From a bacterium (lineage in GTDB: Bacteria > Sysuimicrobiota > Sysuimicrobiia > Sysuimicrobiales > Humicultoraceae), in NCBI GenBank assembly GCA_041497675.1, contig JBGQGY010000012.1, forward strand, positions 1-46,457: 46,457 bases of DNA. Direction: 5' to 3'. Below the pieces are notes generated by a model, which saw only the letters and a program-made list of their open reading frames with translations, was not told the DNA's origin and ran no database searches. The translations under genes and the position numbers were made by a program. Below are positions 685 to 10,584 of the stretch, one piece after another (the first letter of the stretch is position 1; each line of letters opens with the position of its first letter).

Positions 685-1089
685 TTACTTTCCCGGTAAT
701 CGGTGGGTGTAGGTCACCACGCCGTACTCTTTGGTCGTTGTGGACTCGTGGACGGTCTTGCCGTCCACCATCACCTTGATCCCGAGTTCGCCCGGCTGCG
801 TGCGCTTCTGAAAGGCCACACTGAACCCCACGCCCGTCCGGAACGTCAGAGTCCGTGGGACATCGCCGGCCAGCTGCTTGGGCTGGCCGAGTTCGCCGTA
901 CGAGCCGTCAAACCGGAGGCCTTGCGTGCCCACGACTTCGATGATGACGGCCGAGGATGGCGTCGCGACCACGACGGGTTGGCTGACCTGCCGGCGGCTG
1001 CGCACCATCGGAGTCTGGCAGGCCGATGCCAGCAGGATAACGGCCAGCAGCAGCACGCCTGAGCAGGCCATGCGTATACGGGTTCGCAT
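685..1089 (-). CDS. hypothetical lipoprotein
   Basis: ATG at 1089 is preceded by GGGGAGGT. Basic N-terminus, hydrophobic core and lipobox LASA-C, then a beta-rich domain. Confidence 0.65.
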   Translation of the reverse strand: MRTRIRMACSGVLLLAVILLASACQTPMVRSRRQVSQPVVVATPSSAVIIEVVGTQGLRFDGSYGELGQPKQLAGDVPRTLTFRTGVGFSVAFQKRTQPGELGIKVMVDGKTVHESTTTKEYGVVTYTHRLPGK

Positions 1090-1163: not shown

Positions 1164-1169
1164 TATAAT
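1164..1169 (+). promoter_or_regulatory. probable -10 element (TATAAT) for the copper operon leader
   Basis: Perfect TATAAT in the divergent intergenic region, 19 nt before ATG 1189. No clear -35. Confidence 0.45.
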
Positions 1170-1188: not shown

Positions 1189-1671
1189 ATGAGCAGATTG
1201 CTGCAATTCTGCACAGGGACGCTGTGGCCGGGTCGGCGCGGGTGGCGTGCGATCCTGGTGATTGCCTTCTTCGCGTTCTCATCGATGAATCTGCATCCCG
1301 TTGAATCGGATCCAGATCACGGGCACGTCGTCGTCGGCGGCAGCGATGCCGACCGCGCGCACGCGCTTACCGTCCACCTGGCGCGCATGAGACTGCACCC
1401 GGAGACGGACGGCGACGAGCATCCGGCTCCACACGCCGGCCGCGCGCAAACATCCTGCCCGATCGCGTCGACAGACGAGCCCGACGTGATCTCGATCCAC
1501 GGAGAGGCGGCGAGCATCGCCTCCTTCGGAGCGGGTGGCGCCGCCGTCGCCTCCGCAACCCCAGCGCTGCTTCCACCGAACACTCCCGCAGGCCCGCTGT
1601 TCGCGTCCACGGCGGCCGGGCTGCCTGATAGTGCGTTGCCGCCTCCCGAGCCCCCTCCCAGAGCCTCCTGA
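1189..1671 (+). CDS. His-rich exported leader protein with C-terminal poly-Pro motif (CutF/CruR/DUF2946-like translational regulator)
   Basis: Signal-like segment RRGWRAILVIAFFAFSS, a His/acidic-rich middle, C-terminus LPPPEPPPRAS*; first ORF of a copper operon. Confidence 0.6.
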   Translation: MSRLLQFCTGTLWPGRRGWRAILVIAFFAFSSMNLHPVESDPDHGHVVVGGSDADRAHALTVHLARMRLHPETDGDEHPAPHAGRAQTSCPIASTDEPDVISIHGEAASIASFGAGGAAVASATPALLPPNTPAGPLFASTAAGLPDSALPPPEPPPRAS

Positions 1672-1749
1672 CCGCGCGCTGACAACTCGCACTAGTCACC
1701 CGCCGCCTTCGGGCCGCGGTGGTTCGTGGATGCTCTGATACCGAGGGGG
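1651..1749 (+). promoter_or_regulatory. anti-SD/SD attenuator structure
   Basis: CCCCCTC 1651-1657 pairs with GAGGGGG 1743-1749; CAGAGC 1659-1664 with GCTCTG 1732-1737; TCC 1666-1668 with GGA 1728-1730. An internal C(UUCG)G hairpin lies at about 1700-1719. Confidence 0.65.
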
Positions 1750-1795
1750 ACATCATGAAGATCCGGGCGCAATTGCGGTTCCCGTAGCGGGCGGG

Positions 1796-3310
1796 TTGCA
1801 GGCGGCCACTCGAGCGCTGCTCTACCTGGGAACGATCGTGTTCCTCGGCGGAGGCATCTTCGCCCGATGGATCGCCCCGGCCCTGGCGCGAGGGCCGGCG
1901 AGAGGGCGCGTCCGGATCGGAGTGGTTGCCGGAGGCGTGCTGCTCGTGGTCGCAAGCGTCGCCGAGGCGGCCGGCGCGATGACACGCGCACTGGGGATAT
2001 TCGACGCTGGGCTCCTGCCCGAATACTTGTGGGGGACGCAGCACGGCCGCGCGGTACTGGCGCGCGCCGTACTTGCGGTGCCGCTCGCGTGGCTCGCCGT
2101 CCAGGAGCGTTCGTCGGCACGGTGGGGCCGGGTGTGGTATGCGGCGCTCGGCCTCGGCCTGCTCCTGACGTTCAGCCTCACCAGTCACGCCGCCGGGATG
2201 CGGAGCGTTCCGGCGATCGCCGCCGATCTGATCCACCTGGTTGGCGTGGCCGCGTGGGCCGGCGGGCTTCTGTATCTGGCGTGGTCCTCGGTGTGGCCGG
2301 ATCGCGCACCTGCCGCGCACCCGGTCGCCGTGGCGGTGCACCGCGTCTCGCACATCGGCCTCGTGTGTGTCGCGCTGATCGTGGCCACCGGGATCTACGC
2401 GTCCGTCGTGCACCTCTGGGGCCTGCGCGCGCTGACGGACAGTCCGTACGGGCGTGCCCTCCTGGTCAAGATCGCCTTCGTCGTGGTCGCGCTCGGATTG
2501 GCGAGTGTCAACCGGTGGGTGCTCGTGCCGGCCGTGTCTCGCCGCGGTGGCGCGGGGCGCTTGGGACGGATGGTCAAAGCCGAGTCGCTGGTCGTCGTCG
2601 CTATTCTCGGCGCCGCCGGCGTGCTGGCGAGTCAGGCGCCTCCGGAGCGGCCGGCGACCCTGGTGAGTGTCGTGACGTTCGACGAGACCGTTGGGCCGTG
2701 GATAGTGCAGGGCACGTTGACGCCGCGACTGCCCGAGGGGCTCGAGGTCACGTTTGCGGTGCGGGACCAGGCGGGTCATCCCGCGCCGCCGACCGTTGAG
2801 CCCGACATCGTGCTCAAGATGCTCGATCACCCGATGAGTCCGGTCACCATCAAGGCGGCACAGGTGGCCGCGGGCGTGTACCGGAAGGCGCTGTCGCTCC
2901 CGATGTCGGGGCGGTGGCAGGTGTCGATCCGCTTCGCCGAAGGCACTGTGGAGATCATGGTGCGGGCGCAGGAGCCGCCGCCAGAGATGCGCGCGGCGCG
3001 CGAGCGCGCGAATCCGATCCGGTTCTCGGCGCAGTCGATGGCGCGGGGCCGGACGATCTATCAGGCCGAGTGCCAAGCGTGCCACGGGATCACCGGTGGG
3101 GGCGATGGCCCGGCGGCTGCCGGTCTGAACCCCCGGCCGGCCGATCTGCGTATCCATATGGCGGCCGGGCACACCGACGGTCAGCTCTTCAACTGGATCA
3201 GCGAAGGCTTTACCGGCACGGCCATGCCGGCGTTCAAGAAGAATCTGTCAGAAGACGACCGCTGGCATGTCATCAACTTCCTCCGGACACTGGTGCCGCA
3301 GATTCGGTGA
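1796..3310 (+). CDS. copD: CopD-family copper transport membrane protein fused to a YtkA/FixH-like domain and a C-terminal cytochrome c
   Basis: Multiple TM helices with SLTSHAA, DLIHL...AWAGGLL and YGRALLVK (CopD); MLDHPM...LPMSGRWQV (YtkA-like); CQACH heme motif with AMPAF axial Met. The start codon is uncertain (see findings). Confidence 0.85.
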   Translation: MQAATRALLYLGTIVFLGGGIFARWIAPALARGPARGRVRIGVVAGGVLLVVASVAEAAGAMTRALGIFDAGLLPEYLWGTQHGRAVLARAVLAVPLAWLAVQERSSARWGRVWYAALGLGLLLTFSLTSHAAGMRSVPAIAADLIHLVGVAAWAGGLLYLAWSSVWPDRAPAAHPVAVAVHRVSHIGLVCVALIVATGIYASVVHLWGLRALTDSPYGRALLVKIAFVVVALGLASVNRWVLVPAVSRRGGAGRLGRMVKAESLVVVAILGAAGVLASQAPPERPATLVSVVTFDETVGPWIVQGTLTPRLPEGLEVTFAVRDQAGHPAPPTVEPDIVLKMLDHPMSPVTIKAAQVAAGVYRKALSLPMSGRWQVSIRFAEGTVEIMVRAQEPPPEMRAARERANPIRFSAQSMARGRTIYQAECQACHGITGGGDGPAAAGLNPRPADLRIHMAAGHTDGQLFNWISEGFTGTAMPAFKKNLSEDDRWHVINFLRTLVPQIR

Positions 3311-3339: not shown

Positions 3340-4086
3340 ATGCGTTCTGCCAAGATACTGTTGATCGCCGCAATGGTTGTCGTCAGCCTGATCGGTGCCC
3401 GGACGATCGTTCTGGCGCACGCGAAGATTCAAAGCGCCGACCCCAAACCGGGGAGTACCGTCGCCAAGGCGCCCGCGATGGTGAAGATCGTGTTCGCCCT
3501 CGCCCCCGACGAAAGCCTCGATCCCAAGACCAGCACGATCGCCGTCTTGGATAGTCACGGACGCCGCGTGGATGACGGCAAGGGCGGCGTCGATCTCAAC
3601 GATATGGACCGAAAGACGCTGATCGCGATGCTCAAGCCGCTCACGCACGGCACCTACACCGTGCGGTGGAAGGCGGTCTCTAGTCCCGACAAAGACGTCT
3701 CGCAGGGCAGCTTCACGTTCACGGTCGCCGCGGCGATGGGAAGCATGCCGATGGCCGCGGCGCTCCCGCCGCTCAAGATCATCTCGCCGGCGGCCGGCGC
3801 CACGGTGGCCAGCCCGGTCGACGTGGTGTTCGAGACGACGGCCGACCTCTCGAAGTTGACGGTGGGAGAGATGACGAGAATGCAGGGCGCGCATCTGCAC
3901 GCCGACCTCGCCGGGCGGGTCACCATGCCGGAGATGAAGCAGATCAAGGTGCTCGGCGACCACCGGTATCAACTCGGTCTGGGCAAAGCGGGGGCGGGCA
4001 AGCGCACGATCCGCCTCTACTGGGGCGACAACAAGACGCACAAGCCGGTCGGGCCGGTGCAGACGGTCTCGATCACCGTGAAGTGA
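3340..4086 (+). CDS. copC: CopC-family periplasmic copper-binding protein with an extra C-terminal HxH (DUF4399-like) domain
   Basis: SD GAGGAG; signal peptide ending VLA-HAKIQSADP; GTYTVRWKAVS; Met-rich linker; C-terminal domain LKIISPAAGATVASP...HLH. Confidence 0.8.
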   Translation: MRSAKILLIAAMVVVSLIGARTIVLAHAKIQSADPKPGSTVAKAPAMVKIVFALAPDESLDPKTSTIAVLDSHGRRVDDGKGGVDLNDMDRKTLIAMLKPLTHGTYTVRWKAVSSPDKDVSQGSFTFTVAAAMGSMPMAAALPPLKIISPAAGATVASPVDVVFETTADLSKLTVGEMTRMQGAHLHADLAGRVTMPEMKQIKVLGDHRYQLGLGKAGAGKRTIRLYWGDNKTHKPVGPVQTVSITVK

Positions 4087-4102: not shown

Positions 4103-4564
4103 ATGAGGATGAGACTCTTCGCCACTTGCGCTTTCTTGTGCGCGTTCATGGTCGTGACCGGGGACCCGGCATCCGCGCACGCGTTCTTGCGGGTCGCCGA
4201 CCCGGCCGAAGACAGCACCGTGAACGCCGCCCCGAGCGAGATCCGGCTCGGGTTTACCGAACCCGTCGAGATCCGGTTCAGCATCTTCAAGGTGTACCGC
4301 CTCGACGCCAACCCGTCGACCGAGCTGCGCCGTCTCAACACGCAGGCCGGCGCGCTCATGTCGGATGTATTGACTAAACGCGACGACGAGAGCGCCCGCG
4401 CCGACGCCGGTGTAAGCAACACCGCCCGGACGGCCACGGACATCACGCTTCGTTTGAAGCCCGACCCTCAGCCCGGCGTCTACGCCGTCATGTGGCGCGT
4501 CCTCTCGGTGGACACACACACGACGCAAGGGTTCCATATCTTTATCGTCGCGCCAAGGCGCTGA
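4103..4564 (+). CDS. copC: second CopC-family copper-binding protein
   Basis: Signal peptide ASA-HAFLRVADP; FTEPVE; GVYAVMWRVLSVDTH with the D-x-H Cu(II) site; SD GGAGGAG. Confidence 0.85.
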   Translation: MRMRLFATCAFLCAFMVVTGDPASAHAFLRVADPAEDSTVNAAPSEIRLGFTEPVEIRFSIFKVYRLDANPSTELRRLNTQAGALMSDVLTKRDDESARADAGVSNTARTATDITLRLKPDPQPGVYAVMWRVLSVDTHTTQGFHIFIVAPRR

Positions 4565-4576
4565 GGGAGGGCTACC

Positions 4577-5785
4577 GTGAGACGACTCTTGGGTGTATTG
4601 AGTGTTGTCCTGCTGGTGCTCACGATCGTTGGTCCCACTCCGAGTTACGCGGCCTCCACAGACTCCGGCGCGTTGCGCACGTCCGTCGTGTTGACGTACA
4701 AGTTCACGACGGCGCCGACACCTGCCGCGGCCGGCGACGAGAACTACAACGGTCCCACACCGGACACGCCGGATACGCACGCCGGCAGCCTGGATCTCGG
4801 GCTGAACTTGCGGTTGTCCGGGAACGTCAGGGTGTTTGCGCTCATCAGCCCGTCGGTAAAGACCGGCGAGGACGCGACGATCGAGATCGAACGTTTCTAC
4901 GTCGACCTCCGCGATCTGGGCCTGCGCGGGCTCGGCTTCCGGCTCGGCCGCGACGCCATCCAGTTGGGACAAATCGGTCTGCTGCTGGACGAAGTGAACT
5001 TCGACGAAGACCGGCGCGACGGATTTCAGGCCTGGATCCCGCTTGGACCGGTGCGGGTGTTTACATTCTATCAGTGGGCGCTCGACGACCACACGACCAC
5101 CCGGAGGCTCTGGGGCGCGCGCGCCGAGATGCAGATGATCCCCGGATGGACGCTTGGGGTCAACTACCGCGCCGACATCGCCGCCGACGTGGATGTGGGG
5201 ACCTGCCCGGGCACCGACTGCGCCACGGGGACCGGGTACAGCATCGATCTCGACGGTACCCTCCTGCCGGGTCTGGTGGTGACGCTTGCCTACGCGACGT
5301 ATACGCAGACAGACGATGTTGCGCGGGCGTACCTCCAGGCTATCGTCGTGCTGGATCTGTCGCGCCTGGTCGGTATCAAACGGTTTGAGCCTGTCGTCAC
5401 GCTTTGGTATAAGAACTTCGACCCCTACACGATGCCCGGCGCGTTGGAAGCCATGGTGCCTCGCGGAAACTTTGGGACGCCGGACGACTTCAAACTCTTC
5501 AACATCAACGACAACCTGACGGCGTTGGGCGCGGGTCTGCGGCTCCCGGTTTTGCAGAACGTCGTCGTGTTTGGTCTTGGTGAGTGGGGCATGTACAAGG
5601 ACGGAGGCCCCGGCTACACGGTCTTCTCTGCTGGGGTGAAGTACCGTCCGATGAGCAACACCGAGATCAAGATCACGTACAACACCTATACTGTTGCGGG
5701 CGCAGTCGTGACCACGAGCGCGGTATCCGGTTTTCAACTGGCTAATGTTCAGCTCTATCAGGTCGAGATGTCCGTCAATTGGTAG
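4577..5785 (+). CDS. putative outer-membrane beta-barrel (porin-like) protein
   Basis: Signal peptide (SYA-A), many amphipathic beta strands with aromatic residues, C-terminal strand YQVEMSVNW ending in an aromatic residue; SD GGGAGG. Confidence 0.6.
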   Translation: MRRLLGVLSVVLLVLTIVGPTPSYAASTDSGALRTSVVLTYKFTTAPTPAAAGDENYNGPTPDTPDTHAGSLDLGLNLRLSGNVRVFALISPSVKTGEDATIEIERFYVDLRDLGLRGLGFRLGRDAIQLGQIGLLLDEVNFDEDRRDGFQAWIPLGPVRVFTFYQWALDDHTTTRRLWGARAEMQMIPGWTLGVNYRADIAADVDVGTCPGTDCATGTGYSIDLDGTLLPGLVVTLAYATYTQTDDVARAYLQAIVVLDLSRLVGIKRFEPVVTLWYKNFDPYTMPGALEAMVPRGNFGTPDDFKLFNINDNLTALGAGLRLPVLQNVVVFGLGEWGMYKDGGPGYTVFSAGVKYRPMSNTEIKITYNTYTVAGAVVTTSAVSGFQLANVQLYQVEMSVNW

Positions 5786-5855: not shown

Positions 5856-5885
5856 TTGACCAAATGCGTCTAGCGTGTTTATGAT
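5856..5885 (+). promoter_or_regulatory. sigma70-type promoter for the riboswitch transcript
   Basis: TTGACC (5856-5861), 18 nt spacer, TATGAT (5880-5885). Confidence 0.6.
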
Positions 5886-7633: not shown

Positions 7634-8524
7634 ATGACTCTCAAAACGCTCCTGGTGATCGCGCTCCTGTCGAGCGTTGCCGCGGCCGCCCCGGCGCCCG
7701 CGGGCAGGATCTCCGTCGTGGCCTCGTTTTATCCCCTGTACGAATTCGCCCGTCAGGTGGGCGGCAATCGGGTGACCGTCCGCAACCTCGTGCCGGCCGG
7801 CGCCGAGCCGCACGATTACGAATTGACGCCCCGCGACGTGATCGCGGTCAACGAGGCCCGAGTGCTGATCTACAACGGCGCGGGCCTCGAGCCGTGGGTG
7901 CAGAAGCTGCTGCCCCAGATCCCAGAGCGCGTCGTGAAGATCAACGCCAGCAACGGCATCCAACTCATGCGGCTCGGCTCGGGCGGGGGCAGAGGGCAGA
8001 TCGATCCACACGTCTGGCTCGACCCGGTGCTCGCGCAGCGCCAGGTCGACAATATCCTCGCCGGAATCGTGCAGGCCGATGTGTCCGACAGGGCGGTCTA
8101 CGAGGCCAACGCGGCGGCCTTCAAGGCGAAACTGGGCGCATTGCACGAGCGCATCCAGCGAACCCTCGCACCGTGCCGCAAGAAGGTGTTCATCACGACC
8201 CACACAACGTTTGGCTATTTCGCGGCGCGATACGCTCTGACGCAGTTCGCCATCAGCGGGGTCACGCCGGAGGGCGAGCCGTCGGCCGCCAAGATGCGCG
8301 AGATCCTGCGGATCGTGCGGCAACACGATATCCATGTCATCTACTATGAAACGTTGGTCAGCCCGCGGGTGGCCTCGGCCGTCGCGCGGGAGGTCGGCGC
8401 GCGCACCCTCGTCTTGAACCCCATAGAGGGTCTGACCGGCGCCGAGGTGCGGCAGGGGAGAGACTACCTGTCGGTGATGGATGAGAACGTCCGCAGCCTC
8501 GCGCAGGGCCTTGACTGCCCGTAA
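7634..8524 (+). CDS. znuA: zinc ABC transporter substrate-binding protein
   Basis: Signal peptide, GAEPHDYELTP, NGAGLEPW, DPHVWLDP, TH..FGY..RY, LNPIE. Confidence 0.92.
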   Translation: MTLKTLLVIALLSSVAAAAPAPAGRISVVASFYPLYEFARQVGGNRVTVRNLVPAGAEPHDYELTPRDVIAVNEARVLIYNGAGLEPWVQKLLPQIPERVVKINASNGIQLMRLGSGGGRGQIDPHVWLDPVLAQRQVDNILAGIVQADVSDRAVYEANAAAFKAKLGALHERIQRTLAPCRKKVFITTHTTFGYFAARYALTQFAISGVTPEGEPSAAKMREILRIVRQHDIHVIYYETLVSPRVASAVAREVGARTLVLNPIEGLTGAEVRQGRDYLSVMDENVRSLAQGLDCP

Positions 8525-8565
8525 TGCGGGGACTACCATACGAAACGTATTGAGAACAATTCTCA
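8511..8565 (+). promoter_or_regulatory. internal promoter and Zur box upstream of zur
   Basis: TTGACT, 17 nt, TACCAT (8511-8539); perfect inverted repeat TGAGAA-CAA-TTCTCA at 8551-8565. Confidence 0.7.
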
Positions 8566-8596
8566 CCGAATCGTTCGCCGCTGGAGACAGAGGACC

Positions 8597-8992
8597 GTGA
8601 CGCAGCAACTTCCAAGGACGCGCAAGACGTGGCAGCGGGACGTAATCCTACAGGCCATGGACGCGGCGAAATGCCACATCACGGCTGAGGAGCTCCACCG
8701 GCGCGTGCGGCGCGGCGTCCGGCCGATCGGTCTGGCGACCGTCTACCGGGCGCTCGAGACCTTCGTCCGCGAGGCTCTGGCGGAACCGGTGCACGTCGGC
8801 GACGGCAAGGTGCGGTACGGTCTGACTGCCAAACATCACGACCACCTCGTCTGTCTCAACTGTGGAGAATGGGAACCGCTGAACGAGTGCCTGCTCCCCA
8901 GGACGCCGCGGCGTCTCGGGACCTTCAAAGTGACCGGGCATCAACTGGACGTGTATGGGTACTGCGCGCAGTGCCAGACGGCCGGGGCCTGA
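8597..8992 (+). CDS. zur: Fur-family regulator, probably Zur
   Basis: HITAEEL, IGLATVYRAL, HHDHLVCLNC, HQLDVYGYCAQC; located inside the znu operon. Confidence 0.85.
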   Translation: MTQQLPRTRKTWQRDVILQAMDAAKCHITAEELHRRVRRGVRPIGLATVYRALETFVREALAEPVHVGDGKVRYGLTAKHHDHLVCLNCGEWEPLNECLLPRTPRRLGTFKVTGHQLDVYGYCAQCQTAGA

Positions 8993-8995
8993 TCC

Positions 8996-9766
8996 ATGAA
9001 GGCGGGCTCCGCGACGAACGGCGACCCGCTTGTTGAACTGACGGACATCTGCTTCAGCTACGGCGACGAGCGGGTGCTCGATCACGTCACCCTGCAGATT
9101 CGGTCCGGCGACTTCCTGGGGATCATCGGTCCAAACGGGTCTGGAAAGACGACCCTGTTGCGCATCATGCTTGGGTTGCTGCGGCCTGACAGTGGACACG
9201 TGCGACTCTTTGGCAGTGACCTCGCCGCGTTTCGCGATTGGAACAGGTTTGGCTACGTGCCGCAGAAGGCCGTGGCATTCGAAACCCGGTTTCCGGCCAG
9301 CGTGTTCGAGGTGGTGCTCAGCGGGCGGTGCGGTCGGGCCGGTCTGGGCCGGCGGTATGGCGCTGATGATCGCGCGGTGAGCGTGCAGGCGCTGGAGACG
9401 GTCGGCATGATCGAGTATCGCGACCGGTTGATCGGCCGGCTCTCCTCGGGGCAGCAGCAGCGCGTGTTCATCGCGCGCGCGCTGGCGAGCCGCCCCGACC
9501 TGTTGCTGCTCGACGAGCCGACCGTGGGGGTCGACGTCGAGGCGCAGGAGCAGTTCTATGGCCTGCTGCGCCGCCTGAATCGCGACATGGGGACGACATT
9601 GGTCCTGGTCTCGCACGACATCGCGGTCATCGCCCAAGAGGTCACGCAACTGGCCTGTCTGAACCGCAGCCTCGTATTTCACGGCAGCCTCGACGAAGCG
9701 ATGCGGTCGGGCGCCGTCGAGCGCATGTACCGGGCCGAAAGCCGCCTGGTGGCCCACCGGCACTGA
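8996..9766 (+). CDS. znuC: metal ABC transporter ATPase
   Basis: GPNGSGKT, GYVPQ, LSSGQQQRVFIARAL, LLLDEP, VSHD, CLN. Confidence 0.92.
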   Translation: MKAGSATNGDPLVELTDICFSYGDERVLDHVTLQIRSGDFLGIIGPNGSGKTTLLRIMLGLLRPDSGHVRLFGSDLAAFRDWNRFGYVPQKAVAFETRFPASVFEVVLSGRCGRAGLGRRYGADDRAVSVQALETVGMIEYRDRLIGRLSSGQQQRVFIARALASRPDLLLLDEPTVGVDVEAQEQFYGLLRRLNRDMGTTLVLVSHDIAVIAQEVTQLACLNRSLVFHGSLDEAMRSGAVERMYRAESRLVAHRH

Positions 9767-9774
9767 GCCTCCCC

Positions 9775-10584
9775 GTGCCCGAAATTCTCCAATATGGGTT
9801 CATGCAGCGCGCGCTGCTCGCGGGCGCCATCATCGGGACGATCGCGCCCATGATCGGCGTCTTCTTGGTGCTGCGCCGTCTCAGCCTGATCGCCGATACG
9901 CTGTCGCACGTGGCGCTGGCCGGCGTCGCCGCCGGTCTGCTGTTGCAGACCTACCCGCTGGCCGGCGCGCTGGTCGCGGCGCTGGTCGGCGCCGTCGGCA
10001 TCGAGCGGCTGCGGATGTCCGGACGGTTGTTCGGCGAAGCCGCGCTGGCGATCTTCCTCTCCGGAGGCTTCGCGGTGGCCGTCGTGCTCATCAGCCTCGC
10101 GCGCGGGTTCAACGTCGACCTGTTTTCGTATCTGTTTGGGGCGATCACGGTCGTCCAGCCGCGCGACCTGTGGGTCATCTTGGTGCTGGGTCTGGTCGTG
10201 TTCGGCGCGGTGACCGCGTTCTCGAAGGAACTCTTTGCCATCACCTTCGATGAGGAGAGCGCGCGCGTTCAGGGCGTGCCGGTCGACCGGCTCAACCTGC
10301 TGCTCACCGTGTTGGTCGCCGTGACCGTGGTCGTCGCCATGCGGATCGTCGGCATCCTGCTGACCAGCGCCCTGCTCGTGATCCCCGCGGTGACGGCGTT
10401 GCGGCTCGCCCGCAGCTTCCGCACGACGCTCGTGGTCGCCGTGGCGTGCTCGCTGGTTTCCGTGTTGGTCGGCATGATGGTGTCGTTCTACCTGGATATC
10501 GCCGCGGGCGGCGCGATCGTCCTCACGGCGCTGGCGTTATTTGGGGCGGCGATGCTGGCCAGGCGGGAGAAGGCGCCACGCTAG
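9775..10584 (+). CDS. znuB: metal ABC transporter permease
   Basis: FMQRALLAG, DTLSHVALAG, SYLFG, FDEE.AR, VG.LL.SALL.IPA. Confidence 0.92.
   Translation: MPEILQYGFMQRALLAGAIIGTIAPMIGVFLVLRRLSLIADTLSHVALAGVAAGLLLQTYPLAGALVAALVGAVGIERLRMSGRLFGEAALAIFLSGGFAVAVVLISLARGFNVDLFSYLFGAITVVQPRDLWVILVLGLVVFGAVTAFSKELFAITFDEESARVQGVPVDRLNLLLTVLVAVTVVVAMRIVGILLTSALLVIPAVTALRLARSFRTTLVVAVACSLVSVLVGMMVSFYLDIAAGGAIVLTALALFGAAMLARREKAPR

Follow-up and report, generated by a model that had tools for sequence, protein, structure and literature searches.

The analysed window, the whole stretch of 46,457 nucleotides, carries a copper operon on the forward strand that is headed by a small leader gene. A likely -10 element of the leader and operon promoter (TATAAT, 1164-1169, forward strand) is retained in the related loci L032 and L080; it was not called by the consensus promoter scan, which requires a -35 element too. 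The leader ORF (1189-1671, forward strand) encodes 160 amino acids and, as judged from its sequence and family searches, is a member of an unnamed family, here called the His3/PPPR family. It is followed on the same strand by a ten-codon ORF (1755-1787), a copD-YtkA-like-cytochrome c fusion with a TTG start and a weak Shine-Dalgarno sequence (SD) of its own (1796-3310; Pfam CopD, Cytochrom_C and, below the cut-off, YtkA), genes for a protein that combines a CopC domain with another, Ig-like one (3340-4086; Pfam) and for CopC (4103-4564; Pfam), both with their own SD, and a gene for a 402-aa secreted protein without an informative Pfam match (4577-5785). From its signal peptide and C-terminal Trp, the 402-aa protein is likely an outer-membrane barrel. 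Its homologues flank copD in L005 and L010, and these proteins could be a copper entry channel.

Several neighbouring features lie outside the operon. A small ORF that resembles a lipoprotein gene and has no match in Pfam (685-1088, reverse strand) diverges from the leader, and the same layout was found in genomes G002 and G085. Just past the operon, a c-di-GMP-I-GGC riboswitch (RF03167; 5913-5996, forward strand) was detected at 60.8 bits, above the gathering score, with a good sigma-70-like promoter upstream at 5856-5885. Further along, 6 kb away from the copper genes, a locus (7634-10584, forward strand) encodes ZnuA, a Fur-family regulator, an ABC ATPase and a permease, and is likely used for zinc uptake.

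The leader protein, its family and its neighbours

An earlier note on this DNA had described an exported 160-aa ORF ending in LPPPEPPPRAS, and the ORF with this tail is present in the sequence as claimed. It contains nine His and two Cys, with C8 preceding the hydrophobic stretch and C90 belonging to the mature protein; the protein has neither CxxC nor CxxxC, in agreement with the note. The description of the leader as His-rich has to be corrected, because only three of the nine His are conserved, which points to a defined His3 site. In the AlphaFold model, a hydrophobic helix of residues 17-33 (1237-1287), which coincides with the hydrophobic segment of the family and is a signal peptide or membrane anchor, is followed by strands 45-49 and 99-103 and a helix of residues 53-69. 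These elements form a predicted beta-alpha-beta mini-domain (residues 44-103, 1318-1497) in which the conserved H44, H46 and H63 are the predicted metal site. Past residue 103 the model is unstructured and shows no secondary structure in the spacer (1498-1650), whose length is fixed among 123 members, and the spacer leads to the PPPR codons (1651-1662), the predicted stall site according to conservation, folds and covariation, with the anti-SD at 1651-1657. The model is of modest quality (pLDDT 70.8, pTM 0.41), and the three His may meet in it. A Foldseek search with the model gave nothing at E<=0.001, and the best Z of 2.7 in a VIA-align fold search supports neither a new fold nor a known fold.

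By a profile search of 1.84 billion representatives, 131 family clusters at 50% identity were recovered, while single-sequence searches had given 8 proteins and had matched 23 of 151 genomes, in part spuriously. The family profile matched 26/94 genomes of the source phylum and 0/307 genomes outside it in a scan that scored nine candidates per genome and, outside the phylum, one or two genomes for each family, which leaves room for a wider distribution. The source phylum comprises 94 species in one order, seems to resemble Ca. Sysuimicrobiota (CSP1-3) and is not Pseudomonadota; the lineage is non-proteobacterial, as had been supposed. Mean column identity of the family is 17%, despite three near-invariant His in the aligned members (H44 in 125/125, H46 in 126/126 and H63 in 128/129). 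The tail is also well kept, with a C-terminal PPPR in 107/131 clusters and PP within the last 15 residues in 126/131. The distance from V100 to P157 is constant at 57.9 +/- 1.5 residues (n=123), and the loop from H63 to V100 is variable (31.3 +/- 7.5 residues). Of 115 full-length members, 113 have a hydrophobic N-terminal segment; none of the 115 shows a Tat-like motif, and export by Tat was therefore rejected. The hydrophobicity of the spacer would suffice for a second membrane helix in 33/122 members.

CxxC or CxxxC occurs in 3/131 members and never in a conserved column, R[AG]PP was found in the last 20 residues of 0/131, and Pfam PF11162 (DUF2946) matched 0/127 members at E<=0.1. The same Pfam family was found in 0/94 genomes of the phylum, with 2/14 control genomes positive. 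In searches of Pfam with sets of 24 and of 127 members, and of NCBIfam with the 127, every family matched at most two members, and no Rfam match was obtained over the leader and intergenic region. The nearest clusters in the ESM Atlas are labelled 'hypothetical' (0.95-0.96), a few of the neighbours there bear labels from other phyla, and a CzcI-labelled set at 0.94 with only 113 shared features serves as a lead only. P0126, a distant member, found no match when used as the query against plasmids. No paper on the His3/PPPR family was found in the open literature searched, and the member list of PMC9973294 may include members.

The genes behind the leaders are related to copper. A gene for CopC, CopD or SCO lies at most 1.5 kb downstream on the same strand at 29/30 leader loci, all of which were found by searches with the leader itself; at the exceptional 30th locus the contig stops 59 nt past the leader stop. 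These counts exclude two degenerate leader copies (L077 and L078) and seven weak matches (L046 and L048-L053), of which the five inspected (L046 and L048-L051) proved unrelated. Among the first genes of the 30 loci, 15 encode secreted proteins for which an N-terminal His is predicted, 8 encode SCO, 3 CopC, 1 CopD and 1 a protein with a cytochrome c domain, and the other 2 are short or cut ORFs; no oxidase, efflux or HupE/UreJ-kind gene is among them. Gaps between leader and same-strand neighbour are 36-219 nt. The His-N-terminal secreted proteins (141-222 aa, with HE or HQ after the signal; L032 847-1272 on the reverse strand and 14 other loci) have no PDB sequence match and only weak FixH/YtkA-like Pfam matches, and they are a candidate new copper chaperone family. 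Taken together, comparison of the sequences allowed us to demonstrate the hydrophobic N-terminus, the His3 site, the fixed spacer, the PPPR tail and the operon-head position, as well as the selection on anti-SD:SD pairing described below.

Predicted pairing between the leader tail and the downstream SD

The predicted fold joins CCCCCTC (1651-1657) to the SD GAGGGGG (1743-1749), CAGAGC (1659-1664) to GCTCTG (1732-1737) and TCC (1666-1668) to GGA (1728-1730), exactly as the earlier note had proposed, and the Pro codons thereby mask the SD; opening-cost calculations gave the same picture. The paired segments enclose an intergenic multibranch stem (1672-1742) including a C(UUCG)G hairpin at 1705-1714 (loop 1707-1712). 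This hairpin was considered as the key element and rejected, since its loop is altered in the close homologue L080 and is therefore not essential. No intrinsic terminator was called between the leader and copD.

Folding and a search for covariation had been suggested as the check on this pairing, and the outcome differed between the single locus and the family. At the locus alone, the pairing is not clearly beyond chance: the fold of 1630-1780 gave a z of 0.18, that of a tighter range picked post hoc (1645-1760) a z of -1.94, and the pairing was no better than that of synonymous tail recodings (p 0.27-0.28), a test in which only 4-7 of 25 loci singly reached p<0.05. Across the family, the pairing is beyond chance and under selection. 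Because any run of Pro codons is bound to match G-rich SDs in part, the specificity of the pairing was tested by comparing cognate with non-cognate combinations of tail and SD. The duplex energies were -17.7 (cognate) versus -15.0 kcal/mol (non-cognate) for 20 loci (P 3e-5) and -16.7 versus -14.4 kcal/mol for 24 non-redundant loci (permutation P 5e-5), the loci being kin, the downstream start codons being picked by eye and near-duplicates having been removed (5 from the 20-locus test and 6 from the 24-locus test). With one-per-genus draws (n=15), P<0.05 was obtained in 20/20. The five last-found loci were mixed, with cognate ranks of 3, 15, 5 and 22 of 24 and 7 of 25.

Codon usage in the tail points in the same direction. 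The middle Pro codon is the rare CCT at 13/24 loci, compared with 17/170 other PPP runs in the source genome and 23/205 other Pro codons of 20 leaders. Synonymous codon changes track SD changes in five loci (L034, L038, L040, L041 and L033), and L040 and L041 have a compensatory change adjoining the SD. At 5/25 loci (L036, L037, L044, L070 and L073), the tail:SD pairing is nearly absent in the ensemble. We conclude that the Pro-codon:SD pairing is under selection across the family, and that an anti-SD switch has good computational support.

The effect of a ribosome on the pairing was modelled with a 30-nt footprint. When the footprint was placed on PPP, the cost of opening the SD fell from 11.3 to 4.1 kcal/mol at this locus and from 11.5 to 6.9 kcal/mol in the mean of 22 loci, for which L044 and L045 were additionally left out, whereas footprints 12-18 codons upstream of PPP left the cost unchanged (11.3-11.8 kcal/mol). 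With the ribosome placed at the ORF end, the SD is opened about as well as with one on PPP (7.4 versus 6.9 kcal/mol); the RNA data therefore demonstrate coupling with translation of the leader and not stalling itself.

The ten-codon ORF in front of copD

The masked SD had been taken for that of the downstream copper gene. This proved to be incorrect, as it starts a ten-codon ORF, MKIRAQLRFP (ATG at 1755, stop at 1785-1787), and not copD, which begins at TTG 1796, in a different frame and 8 nt past the stop. In L032, whose leader is 75% identical, and in L080, the same SD starts an intact gene for a 142-aa secreted His-N-terminal protein, which contains ...LKIRAQF... and ends in ...ELRFP. Alignment with the intact gene in these two loci shows the ten-codon ORF as its remnant, with 258 and 138 nt missing from the window relative to L032, both multiples of 3, and a 6-nt repeat at the first deletion junction that is found at both ends in the intact gene. 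On this comparison, the ten-codon ORF is a remnant of the 142-aa gene after two in-frame deletions. An assembly error was rejected as its source, because contigs from 4/4 runs span it gap-free (all are sediment metagenomes, possibly from one campaign; the 24 runs listed included no RNA data set), and one query found no intact copy of the gene in the source genome. Frameshifting or readthrough across 1730-1796 was also rejected, because the homologues place the copD start at 1796; a TTG or GTG start of copD is present at the equivalent position in L032 and L080.

We suggest that the remnant likely relays ribosomes to the weak TTG start of copD. It retains SD, start and stop, so that ribosomes starting there would pass to this TTG. 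Compared with L032 and L080, the SD of copD itself is weaker in the window. At most intact loci inspected, genes 1 and 2 overlap or are at most 8 nt apart, which suggests translational coupling. Leader, anti-SD, SD, start, stop and copD distance are intact in the window, where the intergenic region shares 92% identity with that of the intact loci. Two deletions would both be in frame by chance in 1 of 9 cases, which is weak evidence that the relay was selected. A separate 427-nt deletion in G027 (L042), relative to G007 (L056), fuses copC in frame with the opening codons of gene 1, and this fusion leaves copC under the leader-controlled SD. In G001 the leader lies immediately upstream of copD, and in G002, of the same genus, leader and gene 1 are lost with copD retained at 91% identity. 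The G002 join (L002 near 1480-1500) falls inside the likely -10 element, and this genome is 59% complete, so a misassembly is possible there. If it works as proposed, the ten-codon remnant illustrates how a switch can retain control of its operon after the loss of the first gene.

A proposed His-based copper switch, related systems and alternatives

The leader heads the copper operon and is likely a His-based, ribosome-pausing copper switch. For the best explanation in its full form, we see about an even chance: a cis-acting leader whose Pro codons mask the next SD and whose three His sense copper outside the cytoplasm while the chain is still bound to the ribosome. The steps beyond the RNA pairing are what we infer. 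The leader chain would be exported co-translationally via Sec, and a pause of the ribosome on PPPR would melt the anti-SD helix and allow the operon to be translated. The ribosome tunnel holds about 30-40 residues and the translocon about 20 more, so that at the pause the 58-residue spacer would set the last strand of the mini-domain just beyond the membrane, at its outer face. Copper bound at H44/H46/H63 may then complete the fold of the mini-domain, tug on the chain and release the pause, upon which the anti-SD helix would re-form and the uptake and delivery genes would be switched off. This copper-off sign, with a CruR-like direction and a CutF-like output, is modestly favoured in our analysis, because the controlled genes are of the uptake and delivery classes found behind the copper-repressed CruR. 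YcnJ and YebZ, which are of the CopD type, have been proposed to be importers. A point against the model is that PPP is normally rescued by EF-P (bioRxiv 2025.02.05.636593).

The design resembles known leaders in different respects. With CutF of the Rhodobacter capsulatus cutFOG operon, the leader shares small size, export, a position at the head of a copper operon, a C-terminal PPP and an SD-masking stem (PMC9973294; bioRxiv 10.1101/2025.02.05.636593), and the opening of this stem by a ribosome on PPP is reproduced here computationally. It differs in its His3 site, in the lack of a DUF2946 match, in the rarity of CxxxC or CxxC (3/131 members) and in its 160 aa. The downstream genes for CopC, CopD and SCO, in place of the multicopper oxidase, suggest that the sign is likely opposite to that of CutF. 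With CruR of Bordetella pertussis (Bp2923, DUF2946/PF11162), whose arrest has been demonstrated (PMC12992588), the family has in common the export signal and the constrained spacing between a metal motif and a Pro arrest motif, and both head operons with CopC, Sco and YcnI-type genes; the CruR operon classes are ScoC, CopC and YcnI, and the CruR operon is copper-repressed (PMC9426467). Compared with CruR as described there, PPPR replaces RAPP (0/131), His3 replaces CxxC, the fixed 58 residues are counted from the last strand of the mini-domain rather than from the ligand motif as are the 45 of CruR, and SD masking seems to be the output, in place of the Rho termination used by CruR. The family is not part of DUF2946, as it lacks PF11162, CxxC and RAPP; it has the export signal, the operon-head position and the spacing. 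Its parts (export signal, PPP and SD-masking stem) thus appear CutF-like, and its neighbours and constrained spacing CruR-like.

Two further groups of published leaders come close. The rule-based CutF-like class of PMC9973294 has PP in the last 15 residues, a signal peptide and a same-strand neighbour within 1000 nt, all of which were found for this family, and a length below 150 aa, which the 160-aa leader exceeds; since members mostly have 125-190 aa, many would fail this filter. His-only CutF-like leaders have already been published as clusters 14 and 17 (PMC9973294), which share with the family a His-only metal motif, an export signal and PP near the C-terminus. These clusters precede HupE/UreJ genes (Ni/Co), whereas the family precedes copper genes at 29/30 loci; an overlap with the list of that paper is possible. 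The RAPP/RGPP arrest peptides, including SLIV_18480, likewise precede metal genes and have predicted His-containing copper sites; unlike this His3 family they carry Cys, and SLIV_18480 has four membrane helices. The idea of a His-based CutF/CruR-like leader in the earlier note is supported by computation as far as the His-only site, export signal, Pro tail, first position in copper operons and family-wide anti-SD are concerned.

Other explanations have to be weighed against the copper-off switch. The same switch may work with the opposite, CutF-like sign, in which copper prolongs the stall, the operon is turned on and CopC and CopD serve copper tolerance. The sequence and RNA results fit this sign equally well, and the PPP tail and SD-masking stem are nearer to CutF than to CruR (PMC9973294, bioRxiv 2025.02.05.636593), but the 30 first genes include no oxidase or efflux gene and their classes match CruR-type operons; we regard this sign as possible, though doubtful. 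It would be rather unlikely that the leader acts without metal sensing, as a translation coupler or secretion monitor, with the His3 domain being set free as a metal-binding protein of the periplasm, or with a pause that responds to Sec activity or EF-P. SecM-type monitors do share the design of export signal and Pro tail, and a ribosome ending the ORF opens the SD comparably (7.4 vs 6.9 kcal/mol). However, three His that are near-invariant at 17% mean column identity, a spacer of fixed length next to a free intra-domain loop, and copper genes behind the leader at 29/30 loci all argue against this reading.

His3 sites often bind Zn, and the site may sense Zn, Ni or Co instead of copper, for which the ZnuA/Fur-family/ABC locus 6 kb downstream in the window and the Ni/Co HupE/UreJ genes behind the published His-only CutF-like clusters could be taken as hints. 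The neighbours of this family are, however, copper-specific (CopC, CopD and SCO), and HupE/UreJ-kind first genes are absent, which makes another metal quite improbable. Least probable of all is that the locus in the window is a decoupled relic, in which the ten-codon ORF is nothing but a product of decay, with copD being translated independently or hardly at all. Gene 1 or the entire leader has been lost in the relatives G001, G002 and G027, and two leader copies elsewhere (L077 and L078) are degenerate, but the elements from leader to copD are all intact here with 92% intergenic identity to intact loci, and the SD of copD itself is weaker than in L032 and L080, where gene 1 is complete.

Returning to the copper-off switch, we put forward a broader version tentatively, at somewhat less than even confidence: a separately evolved copper-sensor family whose His3 mini-domain folds on copper across the membrane, 58 residues from PPPR, so that the folding force frees the ribosome and shuts the copper-uptake operon. 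This family would replace DUF2946 leaders phylum-wide, and its output here would pass through a naturally evolved ten-codon relay that held copD after the deletion of the first gene. If true, post-transcriptional copper control would be extended to a phylum in which DUF2946 was not found (0/94 genomes). The CutF model is one of disulfides competing with copper. The family is Cys-free and has three fixed His, a ruler-like spacer and a tiny predicted domain, so that the idea of metal-induced folding pulling on the chain becomes directly testable without redox effects; it fits a standard force-profile assay and bears on how copper alters the CutF and CruR pause.

Leaders have also been duplicated and lost. 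The degenerate copy L077 (G053) has its tail out of frame and is without PPP, and L078 (G035) has an internal TAG and is still upstream of an SCO-like gene. Contig C45 of G007 carries three paralogous leaders within 30 kb (L039, L054 and L056), two of which precede SCO genes and one a His-N-terminal/CopC/CopD operon.
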